A stretch of 11,761 nt of DNA from a virus (IMGVR_UViG_2585427768_000001:1-11761); one strand, 5' to 3'. Numbered from the stretch's first letter, positions 3,042 to 11,761 are shown. Numbers and translations: made by a program. Notes: generated from the sequence alone by a model not told the origin.

Positions 3042-3314
3042 GGTGTCCTCAACGGGGGAAGAAATACCCCCGCCATACTTACCGCCGCGCCATTTCGCGG
3101 ATTGCCACAACCGGAAGCGCACGGTCGACGAAAATTTAACGACAGGCTATCTATGAACCAGCTACCTCGCCGTGCGCTTTCGCGTTATGGTCTGACTTTT
3201 CAGGGAAATATCCTTTCAGTAAACTGTCAGTGCCGGATGCTCACCCGTGTCCGGCGCACGCACTCCACCTCACCCGTGGAGAACTCCTTAATCACCAACC
3301 CTCAGGAGGGTGAA

Positions 3315-3590
3315 ATGTCGACTGAAAATGATGAAATCATTAACTCCCTGATACGCCAGATTAATAATTTTGATAAAGCATTGCAACATGCTGCGGCGCG
3401 TAGTGATATAACTCTTTTAGCAATTTCATTTCTTGCATCTGTTATGGATAAAAATGAAGTCGTACGACAGAGTCTTGTTGATTATATCGACTCGCTTCAA
3501 CCCGGCACTTTCAATCATGAGAGCTTCAATCATGAGAAAGAGCATGTTAAGTCTGTAATTAATTCTCTTATTTTGAATCAAAAGAATTAA
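3315..3590 (+). CDS. Hypothetical protein (91 aa), AT-rich gene in sieB position
   Basis: ATG 3315 preceded by AGGAGG 5 nt upstream; in frame with track ORF 3102..3590, whose upstream extension is GC-rich, Arg-rich and has no SD. Product MSTENDEIINSLIRQINNFDKALQHAAARSDITLLAISFLASVMDKNEVVRQSLVDYIDSLQPGTFNHESFNHEKEHVKSVINSLILNQKN. Contains a 15-bp in-frame tandem duplication (3510..3539). Confidence 0.6.
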   Translation: MSTENDEIINSLIRQINNFDKALQHAAARSDITLLAISFLASVMDKNEVVRQSLVDYIDSLQPGTFNHESFNHEKEHVKSVINSLILNQKN

Positions 3591-3900
3591 TGCTTTTTGT
3601 TGCAAAGTAATTTTCAAGGGGTTCTATTCGAATCCCTTTCTTTTTCATTAACAAGCCAAACCCCTTATCAATGATGTCCATTAGATCCAGGAAGTATTTT
3701 TCATGTAAATCCTGGTTATAAGAGAGCTGCTTCTCTTCGTACAGCCCGATAAAGGCTCGGCGTACGTTACCGGATATATTGTCGATGGTTTCTTTTTCTA
3801 CGGTACTCAGGTCAAGAGTCGCCAGTTGAGAGCGAACCACATTCGATGCCATTTCCTGGAATGGGACTGGTAAATCTTTAAATTCCATCGTCAACCTCAT
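3568..3900 (-). CDS. Hypothetical protein (110 aa); second gene of the leftward pL-like early operon
   Basis: Track ORF; ATG 3900..3898 overlaps the TGA of the upstream 77-aa gene (ATGA coupling); alternative start MEFKDLP 12 nt downstream. The 3' end overlaps the convergent 91-aa gene by 23 bp. Confidence 0.55.
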   Translation of the reverse strand: MRLTMEFKDLPVPFQEMASNVVRSQLATLDLSTVEKETIDNISGNVRRAFIGLYEEKQLSYNQDLHEKYFLDLMDIIDKGFGLLMKKKGIRIEPLENYFATKSINSFDSK

Positions 3901-4370: not shown

Positions 4371-4847
4371 TTAAGTTCCTGTCTTGGTGATGTTCTGGCT
4401 TTTCCGTTTTGATTCTTGATTTTTCAGATAGTTAGCTACCTTCATTTCCATTGCGGCAATGTAGGCGCGAACGTCATGATCAACCCAACTAGGCTCCGTA
4501 GCATTTCCAGATAAGATGAAAGCCACAATTGCTCTTTTTTCATCAGAGGCGGCTTGATAAAGGCTGTTTATGTCTAAAAGTTCACTTTTTGTATCTGAAG
4601 TGGATGGGGTTGGTATGGGGTATTCGTTAAGCCCCCAATGCTCTGGACCAACCACATCAGAAAAGAAACGCCATAGTTCTGGAAGTTTGTCTTTACTTAT
4701 CGAACCTTTCTTAATCCAGTCATGGATTGATGGTGGTTGGACTTTGAAATGACGTGCGATTTCCGCCTTTGATTTGACGGCTCCTGATGCAATTTTTTTG
4801 TTAATGGCCTGCTCTATCGCTCGGCCTAAGTCTTTACCACTAAGCAT
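4371..4847 (-). CDS. racR: Prophage repressor, RacR-like (158 aa, HTH)
   Basis: Track ORF MLSGKDLGRAIEQAINKK...; HTH-like segment KSKAEIARHFKVQPPSIHDWIKKG; divergent from the ydaS/ydaT-like genes, flanked by operator repeats. Size and organisation match Rac racR from memory, not verified by search. Confidence 0.7.
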   Translation of the reverse strand: MLSGKDLGRAIEQAINKKIASGAVKSKAEIARHFKVQPPSIHDWIKKGSISKDKLPELWRFFSDVVGPEHWGLNEYPIPTPSTSDTKSELLDINSLYQAASDEKRAIVAFILSGNATEPSWVDHDVRAYIAAMEMKVANYLKNQESKRKSQNITKTGT

Positions 4848-5704: not shown

Positions 5705-5726
5705 AAGCACGGTGTTCGGGGGTTTT

Positions 5727-6689
5727 ATGAGCAGCAAGCTTCATGGTCTTGTCTGGGAAGGGTGCGCCTTCACCGGCATGATCTTATCCAGGGTGGCGGT
5801 TATGGCCCGTCTTGCAGACTACAGCAATGACGAGGGCGTGTCATGGCCTGCCATTGAAACTATCCGGCGTCAGATCGGTGCAAGAAGTGAATCCACAGTG
5901 AAATCGGCTATTGCAGAACTGGCGAAAGAGGGCTGGCTGACGAAGGAAGAGCGTAAGGTCGGTGGGCGTAATGTAAGCAATATCTATCGGCTTAATGTGG
6001 AAAAACTCGAAGCAGCTGCGGCGGCGGCGCGTGAGTCATATAAACCGAAAAGAAAAATTAGCCCGGCAAAAAATGACCCGTTAACAGTTGACCCGTCAAA
6101 TATTGACCCCTCAACGGTTGACCCGTCAAATTTTGATGGATCAACTGTTGATAAAAAACTGCCGATTAGGGGGGCGATGATTAACCCCGATCCGTCAGTA
6201 TTAAAACCTGATCCGTCAGATAAAAGATCTTCTTGTCCGGACGCTTCGCAACCGGACCCGCAGACGGCTGAACAGGATTTTTTAACCCGACACCCTGACG
6301 CGGTTGTGTTCAGTGCGAAAAAACGCCAGTGGGGAAGTCAGGAAGATTTGGTGTGCGCACAGTGGATCTGGGGACGAATCGTGAGTCTTTACGAGCAGGC
6401 GGCCAGCGATGATGGCGAGATCACTAGACCGAAAGAACCCAACTGGACAGCATGGGCCAATGACGTTCGCACAATGCGGATGCTGGATGGCAGAACTCAC
6501 AGACAAATTTGTGAAATGTTTGGGCGTCTCCAGCGGGATTCGTTCTGGGTAAAAAACATCATGAGTCCGGCAAAACTCCGGGAAAAATGGGATGAACTGG
6601 TTATCCGCCTGGGGCGTTCGCCTGCGCAGCGTTGCGTGAATCACATTTCTGAACCGGACACTGAAATTCCGCCGGGCTTCAGGGGGTAA
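5727..6689 (+). CDS. Phage replication initiator, O-like (N-terminal winged-helix DNA-binding domain), about 320 aa
   Basis: ATG 5727 with GGGGG 4 nt upstream (track uses GTG 5712). N-terminus MSSKLHGLVWEGCAFTGMILSRVAVMARLADYSNDEGVSWPAIETIRRQIGARSESTVKSAIAELAKEGWL resembles phage replication-initiator HTH domains. A DPS-repeat linker coincides with DNA-level iterons, as in lambda O. Confidence 0.65.
   Translation: MSSKLHGLVWEGCAFTGMILSRVAVMARLADYSNDEGVSWPAIETIRRQIGARSESTVKSAIAELAKEGWLTKEERKVGGRNVSNIYRLNVEKLEAAAAAARESYKPKRKISPAKNDPLTVDPSNIDPSTVDPSNFDGSTVDKKLPIRGAMINPDPSVLKPDPSDKRSSCPDASQPDPQTAEQDFLTRHPDAVVFSAKKRQWGSQEDLVCAQWIWGRIVSLYEQAASDDGEITRPKEPNWTAWANDVRTMRMLDGRTHRQICEMFGRLQRDSFWVKNIMSPAKLREKWDELVIRLGRSPAQRCVNHISEPDTEIPPGFRG
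6073..6148. repeat. Five tandem 15-bp-spaced iterons (core TTGAC-N2-GTCAA), putative prophage ori
   Basis: ATGACCCGTTAA (6073), TTGACCCGTCAA (6088), TTGACCCCTCAA (6103), TTGACCCGTCAA (6118), TTGATGGATCAA (6133), then an A-rich tract ATAAAAAA (6149..6158) and two more GATCCGTCAG copies (6189, 6211). Confidence 0.6.
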
Positions 6690-6729: not shown

Positions 6730-7152
6730 GTGGCAAAAGTTTTTACACAAGAAGAGCGGGAAAAAATTAAAGGGCAGGTTGTTGAACTCGTACGCCAGAG
6801 TGGGCGCGAGACGTTACGACAACTGGAAACTAAAACTGGGGCAACAAGATATCTGATGAGCGTTCTGGCCAGAGAGCTGGTTGCCAGTGGCGATGTATAC
6901 AACTCTGGTTACGGGTTATTCCCGTCTGAACAGGCGCGTAAGGACTGGCAAAATGCCCGTAAAAAGCTCTCAAGGGCAAAGCTGAAGAAACCATCTGCGG
7001 TTGATCCGGACCTTATCTGGTCATTACCTGACGGAGAAATACGTCGCTACGACAGGCGTCAGAACATAATCTGTCGCGAGTGCCGGAAGAGCGAAGTTAT
7101 GCAGCGCATATTGTCGTTTTATCAGGGTAATTTTCAGAAGGTGCTGTTGTGA
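6730..7152 (+). CDS. Hypothetical protein (140 aa) downstream of the O-like initiator; no Walker A motif
   Basis: GTG 6730 preceded by AGGAGGG 3 nt upstream; product MAKVFTQEEREKIKGQVVELVRQSGRETLRQLETKTGATRYLMSVLARELVASGDVYNSGYG..., with CxxC near the C-terminus (CRECRK). Confidence 0.6.
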   Translation: MAKVFTQEEREKIKGQVVELVRQSGRETLRQLETKTGATRYLMSVLARELVASGDVYNSGYGLFPSEQARKDWQNARKKLSRAKLKKPSAVDPDLIWSLPDGEIRRYDRRQNIICRECRKSEVMQRILSFYQGNFQKVLL

Positions 7153-7257
7153 GCCAAATTAACAATCGGAACTTCGTGAAGAGAAAGCATAATCCAAATC
7201 TGAATAATTAAGTTCAGCACTGTAAATAAAATTTAATCCTTAACTGGAGGTATATCT

Positions 7258-7470
7258 ATGTCAAATACACAGAAAATTATTAACACTGAAAAATATAACG
7301 AGTGGGTGAAAAAATTCTCTGAACAGATTTTTAAAATTACTGGCGACGAGAATGTGGCAAAAAATGAATTAGAACCGTGGACACCTGAAGGAAACGCACC
7401 AAATTATTGCTGGTGGGAAGTTGATCCGGTTGATGCTGCAAATGAAGCCATGAGTTACCACAACGATTAA
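7258..7470 (+). CDS. Hypothetical small protein (70 aa), AT-rich accessory gene
   Basis: ATG 7258 with GGAGG 7 nt upstream; product MSNTQKIINTEKYNEWVKKFSEQIFKITGDENVAKNELEPWTPEGNAPNYCWWEVDPVDAANEAMSYHND. Confidence 0.6.
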   Translation: MSNTQKIINTEKYNEWVKKFSEQIFKITGDENVAKNELEPWTPEGNAPNYCWWEVDPVDAANEAMSYHND

Positions 7471-7479
7471 TGTCGGGAG

Positions 7480-7497
7480 GCCGCCCGAAAGGGCGGT
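7480..7497 (+). other. Stem-loop with GAAA tetraloop (CCGCCC-GAAA-GGGCGG) between an SD-like GGGAGG and the next start codon
   Basis: Read from sequence at 7481..7496; GGGAGG at 7475..7480; next ATG at 7503; no T-run after the stem. Confidence 0.5.
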
Positions 7498-7502
7498 AAG
7501 AA

Positions 7503-7721
7503 ATGACTACATTATTCAGAAAAGAATATCCGCAAAAAAGTAGAGCGACAGAATTTTTGTTTCTCATTCTGTTTATCGTATTGATGATACCGATATCCCC
7601 TCTAATTTTTGTCTGGGCAATCGGGAAAATAATTGAGCCAGTTACTGAATTGTATACCGACGTTGTATGGGCGTCGTTCAACACACTGCACAATAAAATT
7701 AATCCGTATAAGGAAAACTGA
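7503..7721 (+). CDS. Hypothetical single-pass membrane protein (72 aa)
   Basis: Track ORF; hydrophobic stretch FLFLILFIVLMIPISPLIFVWAIG; stop TGA 7719..7721 lies 1 nt before the next ATG. Confidence 0.55.
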   Translation: MTTLFRKEYPQKSRATEFLFLILFIVLMIPISPLIFVWAIGKIIEPVTELYTDVVWASFNTLHNKINPYKEN

Positions 7722-7722
7722 T

Positions 7723-7986
7723 ATGGCAACTTTGACAAAAAAAGAACGGGCATGGTTGAACGAATTACAGGAAGTTCTTGATCGCTGTCCATCACCGAAA
7801 AAAATTGGCTTTTACACCATTGGCGATAAAAGCATTTACCTGTATGACCTACGCCGCATGGATGAAATCATGGAGGCTCTTGATAATCGTTCGTCGATGG
7901 ATTGGTGTGTTGCTGTTCATGATATGAATGCAGGGTTTGATGAAAAGATTTTGTTCCCCTCATCAGTTGAAAGCACTGCGGGTTAA
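7723..7986 (+). CDS. Hypothetical protein (87 aa)
   Basis: ATG 7723 with AGGA 8 nt upstream; in frame with track ORF 7633..7986; product MATLTKKERAWLNELQEVLDRCPSPKKIGFYTIGDKSIYLYDLRRMDEIMEALDNRSSMDWCVAVHDMNAGFDEKILFPSSVESTAG. Confidence 0.6.
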   Translation: MATLTKKERAWLNELQEVLDRCPSPKKIGFYTIGDKSIYLYDLRRMDEIMEALDNRSSMDWCVAVHDMNAGFDEKILFPSSVESTAG

Positions 7987-7996
7987 GGAGTAACAC

Positions 7997-8164
7997 ATGA
8001 CCACTATTACCAAAGAACGTATTGAATTGTTCATTAAAAACCCGCTTGAAAACGGGCTTACCCGTGGTGAACAAATGGAACTGGCACGGATTGCGCTGGC
8101 ATCGCTGGAAGCAGAGCCGGTTGTGTTCTGGTTTGAAAAATATCAAGAAGGGGCTACGGCATGA
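7997..8164 (+). CDS. Hypothetical small protein (55 aa), short paralogue of the downstream 114-aa protein
   Basis: Below the track's 60-aa limit; found by hand. ATG 7997 with AAGGAG 6 nt upstream; product [55 protein letters not shown]; stop TGA 8162..8164 overlaps the next ATG (ATGA). Confidence 0.5.
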
Positions 8165-8505
8165 CGACTTTTACCAGAGAGCAGTTAATAGCTCACGCAG
8201 AGGAGACTATTGAAGCACAGAGACTGTGCATACCGGGCACAATCGACCATGACATCATCCGCACATATAAGATGGATATTGCTGTTCTGGAAATCGCACT
8301 GGTATCGCTGGCAGCAGAGCCAGCCGGTAAATTGCATGAATACAAACCAGTGGGATATCAGCGTCTGGTCGATGAGTTAACCATGCTGGTAAAGCAGTTA
8401 ACCTGGCAACTGAGGAAAGCGAAGCCAGACTGCAAATTACCGGATAAGGCGATGAGTTATCTGGAGCGGAACGGACTGATAAGCGTGGAGGATATTTTAC
8501 GATGA
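8161..8505 (+). CDS. Hypothetical protein (114 aa), paralogue of the upstream 55-aa protein
   Basis: Track ORF; shares the N-terminal MTTxT(K/R)E and the motif I-A-L-x-S-L-x-A-E-P with the 55-aa protein; DNA-level similarity about 80% over about 25 nt (8093..8119 vs 8304..8330). Confidence 0.6.
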
Positions 8506-8585: not shown

Positions 8586-8796
8586 AAACGGTTTGCGGGA
8601 AAAGGAGAGTTAAGTAGAATTGCAGCGGGTGCTTGAGGCTATCTGTCTCAGGCATGAACACCAAAAGGCAGATAGAGAAAAGCCCCAGTTAACATTACGC
8701 GTCCGGCAAGACGCTTAACATTAATCTGAGGCCATATCTATGCTCTACACACGTAGGTTAGCCTCTTACGTGCCGAAAGGCAAGGAGAAGCAGGCT

Positions 8797-8952
8797 ATGA
8801 AGCAGCAAAAGGCGATGCTAATCGCCCTGATCGTCATCTGTTTAACCGTCATTGTGACGGCACTGGTAACGAGGAAAGACCTCTGCGAGGTACGAATCCG
8901 AACCGGCCAGACGGAGGTCGCTGTCTTCACAGCTTACGAACCTGAGGAGTAA
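8797..8952 (+). CDS. hok: Hok/Gef-family type I toxin (51 aa), HokD/RelF-like
   Basis: Product MKQQKAMLIALIVICLTVIVTALVTRKDLCEVRIRTGQTEVAVFTAYEPEE matches the Hok family signature; AAGGAG 9 nt upstream of ATG 8797. An in-frame upstream ATG at 8740 with its own GAGG SD gives the track's 70-aa form. Confidence 0.85.
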   Translation: MKQQKAMLIALIVICLTVIVTALVTRKDLCEVRIRTGQTEVAVFTAYEPEE

Positions 8953-9020: not shown

Positions 9021-9049
9021 AACCCGCTTCGGCGGGTTTTGTTCTTTTT
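9021..9049 (+). terminator. Rho-independent terminator after hok
   Basis: AACCCGC-TTCG-GCGGG followed by TTTTGTTCTTTTT; GC stem, tetraloop and T-run read directly. Confidence 0.7.
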
Positions 9050-9196: not shown

Positions 9197-9556
9197 ATGG
9201 CACTCACTGAATTCGGTAAGGCCGTTAGAAAAGCGAGGATCGATACTGACAGTACTCTTCTGACTATGTCTCAAGAACTGGGCACTACGCCAGCGTTTCT
9301 TAGCGGTTTAGAAACTGGTAGCAAAAAAATACCTCTGAAGTGGGTTAAGAAGATTGATTCTTACTTCAAGGCCAAAGGTGTAGAAATTGAAGGGTTACAG
9401 GAGCTAGCGGCAGTTGCGAATGACTCAGTTCCAGTAAACGGTTTGTCTCAGCAACAGAAAATGCTTGTAGCGGGATTCGCTAAGTCGCAGTTTACGCCGG
9501 AACAGCTAAAGAGTTTTGCAGATTTATTGCAAAAGATTAATAACAATGAGGGGTAA
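9197..9556 (+). CDS. XRE-family helix-turn-helix transcriptional regulator (119 aa)
   Basis: ATG 9197 with GAGG 8 nt upstream; N-terminal HTH_3-like segment LTEFGKAVRKARIDTDSTLLTMSQELGTTPAFLSGLETG followed by an extension of about 60 aa. Confidence 0.75.
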   Translation: MALTEFGKAVRKARIDTDSTLLTMSQELGTTPAFLSGLETGSKKIPLKWVKKIDSYFKAKGVEIEGLQELAAVANDSVPVNGLSQQQKMLVAGFAKSQFTPEQLKSFADLLQKINNNEG

Positions 9557-9558
9557 TT

Positions 9559-10035
9559 ATGTATCAAATGAGAGGTAACAGGGTGTCACCGATGCAAGAA
9601 GAAGAAATAGCCTACAGAGCTATAAACTTCTGTAATGCTATTGGTCTTACAGCCTCAAAGCGCAAAAGAAAGCGTTATGATATGTTCTTTGAAAGCCTGT
9701 CAATTTATGGGGTTACTCTTGACGTCAGGACCGACAAAGAGTGGGAGGCTCTGACGTATGATCTAACTATCGGACATTGTGACCCCGCTTCTCTAACAAT
9801 TACGGTTCCCAATAAAATATATGTGAATGCTTGCCTTGGGGAAGAGCATGCACTTGCTGTTATCTTCCACGAGCTAGGTCATTTGCTTCTTGGACACAAA
9901 GCAGTTTTACACTTTTCAGTTAAAGAACCTACTCGTATTGAGGATGCAGAATGGCAGGCAGATACATTTGCGGATATCGTACTGGAAACAATTGGCGTGA
10001 GAACACAACAGATGTCGTTCGATTTTTATATGTAA
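9559..10035 (+). CDS. ImmA/IrrE-family zinc metallopeptidase (158 aa; HExxH)
   Basis: ATG 9559 is 2 nt after the HTH gene stop, with GAGGGG 5 nt upstream; HExxH motif in HELGHLLLGH plus a downstream E/D-rich segment, typical of the ImmA/IrrE family. Confidence 0.75.
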   Translation: MYQMRGNRVSPMQEEEIAYRAINFCNAIGLTASKRKRKRYDMFFESLSIYGVTLDVRTDKEWEALTYDLTIGHCDPASLTITVPNKIYVNACLGEEHALAVIFHELGHLLLGHKAVLHFSVKEPTRIEDAEWQADTFADIVLETIGVRTQQMSFDFYM

Positions 10036-10747: not shown

Positions 10748-11291
10748 GTGCGGGTATTACTTCGACCTGTTCTGGTACCGGAACTCGGGCTGGTGATCGT
10801 TAAGCCGGGCCGTGAATCCATGCCGGTATTCCACAATACCCGGGTACTGGTGGAGCCGGAACCGAAAAGCATGCGTAATCTGTCGTCCGGGGTCGTTCCT
10901 GCCGTTCGCCAGCCGCTGGCGGAGGATAAATCATTACTGCCATTTTTCAGCGACGAACGAGTGATTCGTGCTGCTGGTGGCGCTGGCGCATTGTCTGACT
11001 GGTTACTGCGCCATGTTAAATCCTGCCAGTGGCCACACGGCGATTATCACCACAGTGAAACCGTCATTCACCGTTATGGTACCGGCGCAATGGTGTTGTG
11101 CTGGCACTGCGACAACCAGCTGCGCGACCAGACCTCCGAATCACTCGGGCAACTTGCTCACCAAAACCTGTCTGCATGGATGATTGACGTCATACGCCAT
11201 GCAATGAATGGCTCGCAGGAACGGGAATTATCGCTGGCTGAATTATCCTGGTGGGCGGTCCGCAATCAGGTGGCGGACGCGCTACCGGAAG
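10748..11291 (+). pseudogene. DUF968-like (YdfU-like) Cys/His-rich protein gene, 3' part removed by IS insertion
   Basis: GTG 10748 with GGAGG 4 nt upstream, overlapping the upstream stop; Cys/His motif CQWPHGDYHH...CWHCDNQ; the frame runs into the IS terminal repeat at 11292, so the track ORF tail after ...ADALPEV is IS-derived. Confidence 0.55.

Positions 11292-11761
<470 letters not shown>

Follow-up and report, generated by a model that had tools for sequence, protein, structure and literature searches.

Three small AT-rich genes in the early region of a lambdoid Escherichia coli prophage

Coding status and families of the three genes

We analysed a stretch of viral DNA of 11,761 nt (IMGVR_UViG_2585427768_000001:1-11761), called the window below, which corresponds to the early region of a lambdoid Escherichia coli prophage of the Qin/Rac type. 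Three small genes occupy positions 7258 to 7986 on the plus strand, namely g1 (7258-7470, 70 amino acids, RefSeq WP_000072553, hypothetical protein), g2 (7503-7721, 72 amino acids, RefSeq WP_000209148, DUF4014) and g3 (7723-7986, 87 amino acids, RefSeq WP_000224233, hypothetical protein), and the RefSeq proteins correspond to identical genes. The gaps are 32 nt between g1 and g2 and 1 nt between g2 and g3, and a further gene, g4, begins 10 nt after g3. A first-pass annotation had described three tightly packed rightward genes in a nin-like accessory position behind the replication genes, and both the open reading frames (ORFs) and their placement, after an O-like replication gene and a Ren-like DUF977 gene, were borne out. 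The same annotation had taken the trio for a horizontally acquired moron operon in which soluble and membrane proteins provide superinfection exclusion or abortive infection. Judged by their homologs, however, g1, g2 and g3 come from families that are unrelated to one another, differ greatly in phylogenetic range and have different partners elsewhere.

Among diverged copies, the variable sites of g1, g2 and g3 were concentrated at third codon positions, and the ratio of nonsynonymous to synonymous substitution rates (dN/dS) was 0.1-0.24 for each gene (0.09-0.24 for g2 alone). Thus, all three are genuine protein-coding genes under purifying selection. An ORF of 152 amino acids on the opposite strand (7337-7795) was rejected, as it had no family match and the codon-position pattern favoured the plus strand.

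The trio is AT-rich, as had been noted at first sight, and the difference from the flanking genes was clear when computed. The GC content was 0.371 in g1, 0.361 in g2 and 0.420 in g3, compared to 0.518 in the O-like gene and 0.487 in the DUF977 gene, and the GC content at third codon positions (GC3) was also lower, at 0.35-0.41 in the trio versus 0.50-0.57 in these two upstream genes. This is the lowest-GC part of the window: only 2.5% of all 729-bp segments of the sequence were as AT-rich as the trio, the minimum began at position 7108, and another AT-rich stretch was found at approximately 3300-3750. The AT-richness is real, but its meaning differed from gene to gene. DUF4014 genes were AT-rich wherever they were found (GC 0.36-0.40), partly because of their hydrophobic codons, and the GC content of g3 tracked that of the carrier genome, ranging between 0.40 (Av-05) and 0.58 (a Chivirus).

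The product of g1 is acidic (isoelectric point, pI, 4.5) and soluble, and its sole family match was PHROG 4659, a family of unknown function. Its homologs were confined to Escherichia and Shigella, with an identity of at least 84%, and the gene was present in eight phage records only, which were ArgO145-type Shiga toxin (Stx) phages and one other. When 1.8 billion representatives were searched exhaustively with HMMER, two true distant relatives with about 46% identity were returned; three giant repeat proteins from the same search were discarded as unrelated, with Pfam showing Ig/PKD and laminin-G domains. By these searches, g1 is a narrow family of E. coli/Shigella prophages and ArgO145-type Stx phages. 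The structural model contained three helices, with a predicted local distance difference test (pLDDT) score of 82, and gave only generic structural matches. For both g1 and g3, searches of Pfam, NCBIfam and PADLOC were empty even at permissive thresholds and with every member of the alignments scanned, and PDB sequence profiles gave zero matches.

The second gene, g2, matched Pfam PF13198 over its full length (positions 1-72 of 72, E=3.7e-26, 91.8 bits with a cut-off of 23.2) and also matched phrog_1832. The earlier statement that none of the three proteins could be named was thus overtaken for g2, which is Pfam DUF4014, but it stood in the sense that the searches revealed no homolog with a defined function; NCBIfam gave no match for any of the trio. 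The identity of g2 was 93% to L0067 of 933W and about 51% to gp46 of epsilon15, gp27 of epsilon34 and gp39 of ES18. Hydropathy analysis showed a single strongly hydrophobic stretch, in which the Kyte-Doolittle mean over 19 residues peaked at 2.96 (residues 19-37), and a predicted transmembrane helix at approximately residues 18-41, in agreement with the single helix proposed for the middle protein. The N-terminus is basic (RK.YP.KSR), and the C-terminal 30 residues carry the motif W..F..LHNK.NP..E; in 16 DUF4014 sequences, residues W56, F59, L62, H63, N64, K65, N67, P68 and E71 were invariant. The positive-inside rule predicts a cytoplasmic N-terminus and a periplasmic location of the conserved C-terminal tail (F..LHNK.NPY.E). 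All tested family features were present, and g2 is by these features a DUF4014 single-pass membrane protein.

The product of g3 is an acidic, soluble protein (pI 4.9) that matched PHROG 1714, also a family of unknown function. It was found in 84 phage records, comprising temperate P22-like and lambdoid phages, virulent Chivirus and Vequintavirinae, and phages of Klebsiella, Serratia and Vibrio. Its homolog in ST64T was located in the ea region, and those in virulent Chivirus and Av-05 belonged to clusters of early genes. Residues C22, P23, G29, G34, Y41 and D42 were invariant across 47 aligned sequences. The AlphaFold2 model (pLDDT 92) had the order alpha-beta-beta-alpha-alpha-beta, a confident predicted fold without a solved structural relative.

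When the contexts of g3 were compared, an ORF with an N-terminal module starting MT.ITKE... began 10-11 nt past the g3 stop codon in 46 of 67 non-redundant contexts, as detected with a hidden Markov model built from g3 neighbours. The upstream neighbour was variable and was DUF4014 in 17 of 65 contexts; these fractions are rough, as the sample of loci was biased by the way it was collected. This N-module is common to proteins annotated as Ead/Ea22-like, DUF550 or DUF551, and g3 with its partner was found in Escherichia, Salmonella, Klebsiella, Raoultella, Edwardsiella, Leclercia, Erwinia and the virulent phage Av-05. To judge by these gene orders, g3 is linked chiefly to a downstream Ead/Ea22-type gene and not to g1 or g2. 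The C-terminal parts of the partner genes were widely variable. In the window, the downstream partner is g4 (7997-8164, plus strand, 55 amino acids, phrog_3323/phrog_60), which consists of the Ead/Ea22/EaA-type N-module alone (MTTITKE...), followed by g5 (8161-8505, plus strand, 114 amino acids), which has the same N-module together with a phrog_660 C-terminal part (E=8e-43). Direct repeats at 8076-8118 and 8288-8321 reflect the module common to the two genes, and g4 looks like a recombination remnant within Ea22-type genes.

Linkage of the trio and joints between its genes

Among phage records, none covered at least 80% of positions 7150-8000 and none contained all three genes; g1, g2 and g3 each matched separately, in different phages. 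In 5,426 complete E. coli genomes, g1 was present in 445, g2 in 1,003, g3 in 979 and the whole trio in 401. Within this species g1 was mostly located beside g2 and g3, and g2 and g3 mostly occurred without g1. The DNA of 7150-8000 was identical in many complete genomes, for example that of strain WP5-S17-ESBL-10, and 99.5% identical in ATCC 25922.

BLAST comparisons among related loci revealed joints at 7153/7167, where the module of the DUF977 gene ends, and at 7188, 7473/7504 and 7719/7723, which are gene borders. In some related loci, the DUF977 gene was followed directly by g3, with g1 and g2 missing, and in ArgO145 g1 was followed by a DUF7167 gene, with DUF4014 located 1 kb further on. 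In epsilon15, MG40 and 933W, DUF4014 was found in the early-left ea region, with an Ead/Ea22-like gene on one side and EaA/DUF551 on the other. The 933W genes flanking DUF4014 were considered as diverged equivalents of g1 and g3 and were rejected, as BLASTP showed zero similarity. Across diverse genomes, co-inheritance fails, and in the genomes compared the linkage of the trio is confined to E. coli prophage lineages. The proposed three-gene operon, with a soluble-plus-membrane pair at its core, was not upheld: the genes have separate distributions, the joints fall at their borders, and the partner of g3 is the downstream gene.

The leader, the hairpin and the surrounding early region

A 70-bp AT-rich leader (7188-7257, plus strand) precedes g1 and ends in GGAGG 7 nt before the ATG. 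In related prophages it was conserved behind five or more different upstream genes, with the module joint at 7188, and an alignment of 44 variants gave the core CTGAATAA.TAA.TT.AG..CTGT.A..AAAAT..AATCCTTAAC.GGAGG. A second leader copy with 83% identity precedes another gene in the same prophage family. In ATCC 25922, this second copy is fused straight to the same hairpin that precedes g2 in the window, ahead of a DUF7167 gene (leader 9306-9373 and hairpin 9390-9420 in locus L001), and because of this fusion g1 looks like an insert between leader and hairpin. Within 15 nt of the leader (7199-7213), 13 positions are complementary to the opening codons of g2 (7506-7520), and a complementary AATAATTA core is also present in the DUF7167 gene that follows the second leader copy; this may reflect chance in AT-rich sequence. 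The idea of a promoter within the leader was rejected, as neither manual inspection nor the scan found an acceptable -35/-10 pair.

The first-pass annotation had credited all three genes with good Shine-Dalgarno sites. This was correct for g1 and for g3, which has AGGA 8 nt before its ATG, but not for g2, which has no Shine-Dalgarno sequence at normal spacing and instead has GGGAGG 22 nt upstream, with a GC hairpin between. This putative initiation cassette (7475-7502, plus strand) consists of GGGAGG at 7475-7480, a stem at 7480-7497 with a GAAA loop, and the spacer AAGAA, with the AUG at 7503. The RNA fold of the cassette was -20.3 kcal/mol (z=-3.5) and that of the hairpin alone -14.4 kcal/mol, and there was one copy in the window compared to 0.04 expected. 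The exact 23-mer GGAGGCCGCCCGAAAGGGCGGTA, which comprises the Shine-Dalgarno sequence and the hairpin, was present in at least 119 IMG/VR stretches. In the loci examined, all from E. coli prophages, 204 of 204 instances of GGAGGCCGCCCGAAAGGGCGGTA were located 2-7 nt ahead of a start codon, the genes that followed belonged to at least five unrelated families, and the upstream flank was always one of two kinds, either the 3' end of g1 or the leader. The stem variants CCGTCC and CCGCCT keep G.U pairs in the sense RNA. We read the hairpin element as a putative portable translation-initiation cassette that may also serve as a recombination joint. It was rejected as a nut/boxB site, having no boxA and the wrong position, and as an intrinsic terminator, having no T-run, and Rfam found nothing within 7100-8050.

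A crude consensus scan, and hence a weak negative, found no sigma-70-like promoter or intrinsic terminator bracketing 7258-7986, with site counts at the level of shuffled sequence. The sole consensus-grade terminator-like site on the plus strand was located at 9021, after hokD (seven pairs, five of them G-C, with a T-run tail), and a weak five-pair terminator-like site was located at 8104-8121, inside g4. The g2 stop and the g3 start are separated by one base (TGAtATG). From the lack of bracketing signals, this one-base gap and the 10 nt between g3 and g4, we infer read-through from the rightward early promoter and coupling of g3 to g2.

To the left of the trio, the window contains, in this gene order, a cI-like repressor gene (4371-4847, minus strand), a Cro-like and a YdaT-like gene, and the O-like replication gene (5712-6689, HTH_36/DnaD_N). 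The DUF977 gene (6730-7152, plus strand; Pfam PF06163, E=1.5e-31; phrog_142, E=2.8e-47) is the left neighbour of the trio and lies outside it, in the place occupied by ren in lambda; its copy in ATCC 25922 is interrupted by an internal stop codon. A DicF RNA (Rfam, 76.7 bits) is located at 2927-2978 on the minus strand. To the right of g5 are a sok antitoxin RNA (8627-8802, plus strand; Rfam, 117 bits) and a hokD toxin ORF (within 8740-8952), and downstream of hokD a pair encoding a helix-turn-helix regulator (9197-9556) and an M78 (ImmA/IrrE-type) metallopeptidase (9559-10035). This pair showed weak PADLOC similarity to CapH/CapP and was missing from both related prophage regions annotated (ATCC 25922 and WP5-S17-ESBL-10). 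At the right end of the window, a DUF968-like ORF (10748-11452) appears truncated or rearranged beside an IS3-family transposase fragment (11334-11744, minus strand).

Interpretation and comparison with known systems

On balance, with somewhat more confidence than doubt, we read the trio as belonging to a longer array of small early accessory genes (g1 to g5), which are shuffled independently, act separately and do not form a dedicated system. The trio would have no promoter of its own and would be carried on the delayed-early rightward (pR) transcript, with transcription in lytic growth or upon induction and not from the repressed prophage. Translation of g1 would start from the strong AT-rich leader with its GGAGG, that of g2 from a split ribosome-binding site in which the GC hairpin brings GGGAGG from 22 nt to 5 nt of the AUG, and that of g3 by coupling to g2. 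Each of the three products would have its own non-essential, modulating effect on the host or on the lysis-lysogeny decision, and together they would not make up one exclusion system. In such a scheme g2 would act at the inner membrane via its conserved C-terminal tail, and the role of g1 and g3 would be that of small acidic binding proteins, with g3 probably working in concert with the following Ead/Ea22-type gene.

Several points weigh against this reading. A weak or non-sigma-70 promoter in the leader could escape a scan of the kind used here, and early expression is compatible with exclusion, as small membrane proteins made early can block superinfection. Moreover, about 90% of the complete E. 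coli genomes that bear g1 (401 of 445) carry the whole trio. It is possible that g1 functions together with g2 and g3; clonal spread of one prophage lineage would explain the linkage equally well.

An alternative that we consider unlikely, if still plausible, is counter-defence, in which g1 and/or g3, as small acidic proteins made early, would neutralise an immune system or some other factor of the host, with g2 unrelated to this role. The small size, acidity and solubility of both proteins would fit, as would the presence of g3 among clustered early genes in both temperate and virulent phages from several genera and its confident predicted fold without a solved or annotated relative, and proteins of this type turn up repeatedly when phage accessory genes are screened (PMC12373910). 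In contrast, neither g1 nor g3 has homology to known anti-defence proteins, the peptide strings of the trio were not found in the supplements of one phage accessory-gene screen, the narrow range and generic helical fold of g1 say little, and the class is assigned by analogy only. A more far-reaching proposal, which we offer tentatively and with a similarly low expectation, is that g3 is the founder of an uncharacterised fold and is paired with a variable Ead/Ea22-type gene in a two-gene early host-takeover or counter-defence module of temperate and virulent enterobacterial phages. Independently of g3, the same proposal would have the GGAGG/GC-hairpin/AUG element act as a portable initiation cassette that doubles as a homologous-recombination joint and shuffles small early genes among E. 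coli prophages.

That the trio is a horizontally acquired, prophage-expressed moron operon, whose soluble and membrane proteins jointly give superinfection exclusion or abortive infection, seems to us improbable. The AT-richness, the accessory position and the presence of a small membrane protein speak for it, the joint loss of g1 and g2 from some related loci amounts to an insertion/deletion polymorphism, the trio is linked in the great majority of genomes with g1, and the upstream DUF977 gene bears the PHROG label 'Ren-like exclusion protein'. However, the consensus scan found no bracketing promoter or terminator, the genes run on unbroken into g4 and g5, and g1, g2 and g3 assort independently in phages. 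PADLOC was empty for the trio, with none of the three genes matching at E<=0.1; g2 and g3 belong to early lytic operons elsewhere, and virulent phages, for which there is no lysogen to protect, carry g3 as well. Of the moron proposal, what stood is a mobile and compositionally distinct set of accessory genes; the term moron did not fit, within the limits of the crude scan, genes that lack their own promoter and terminator and whose array continues 10 nt further on, and exclusion or abortive infection was not supported as their function.

Two product names have been propagated for DUF4014/phrog_1832, 'released from the phage upon host infection' and 'sugar/O-polysaccharide acetyltransferase inhibitor'. 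Literature searches found no publication backing either name, searches on DUF4014, the RefSeq accessions and L0067 returned nothing relevant, and no published function was found for the families of g1, g2 or g3. We regard it as very improbable that g2 inhibits an O-antigen or sugar O-acetyltransferase in serotype conversion: some close homologs at NCBI are named 'sugar acetyltransferase inhibitor' or 'O-polysaccharide acetyltransferase inhibitor', the annotation of phage MG40 reads 'acetyltransferase inhibitor', the serotype-converting phage epsilon15 has a DUF4014 homolog, and a single-pass protein whose extracytoplasmic tail is conserved could be a binding partner of a membrane acyltransferase, but the literature searches found no supporting paper, the name is absent from the current epsilon15 RefSeq record, the phages that carry DUF4014 (933W, ES18, HK225 and P22-like) have hosts whose O antigens are of many different kinds, and the other propagated name is just as unsupported.

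Taken by itself, the stretch is ordinary, with three already catalogued hypothetical-protein families that are each present in hundreds to a thousand of the 5,426 E. coli genomes, and its lesson is that proximity and AT-richness are insufficient to call a defence operon. Functional screens of phage accessory genes could reasonably include g3, as its predicted fold is confident and has no solved relatives and as the gene is common to temperate and virulent phages. The reused leader and hairpin cassettes offer a concrete, testable example of how small early prophage genes are expressed and swapped.

Lambdoid morons, such as HK97 gp15 and lambda bor and lom, are expressed from the prophage and have their own promoter and terminator. 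The trio is like them in its deviant base composition and in its presence/absence polymorphism between related prophages, but unlike them in that no flanking promoter or terminator was detected and in being embedded in a continuous array of early genes. The DUF4014 proteins of 933W, epsilon15, epsilon34 and ES18 have the same length, single transmembrane segment and C-terminal motif as g2; these relatives are located in the early-left ea region, whereas g2 here lies in a rightward operon after the replication genes. Similarly, ST64Tp10 (PHROG 1714, from a P22-like ea region) is 59% identical to g3 over its full length and has an Ead/Ea22/EaA-type N-module gene within 10-11 nt downstream, and differs in belonging to the pL-side ea region, whereas g3 here follows the replication genes.

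The closest precedent for the g2 cassette is found in the split ribosome-binding sites of T4 genes 38 and 25, which likewise have a distant Shine-Dalgarno sequence with a stable hairpin between it and the start codon. For gene 38, the spacing of 22 nt is cut to 5 nt by the structure (PMC3014915), the same figures as for g2. The putative g2 cassette differs from both T4 sites in that it is unrelated in sequence, is reused before several unrelated genes and marks a recombination joint.

The small ORFs of the exo-xis and nin regions of lambda (orf60a, orf61, orf63, ea8.5, ea22 and the nin genes) are likewise arrays of small, non-essential, mosaic early accessory genes, and some genes of these small-ORF regions modulate the lysis-lysogeny decision (PMC3824215, PMC7093339). 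At the level of sequence, g1, g2 and g3 have no similarity to the lambda exo-xis/nin proteins and only g4 and g5 share the Ea22-type N-module, and the g1-g5 array as a whole is similar to the small-ORF arrays of the ea region of P22.

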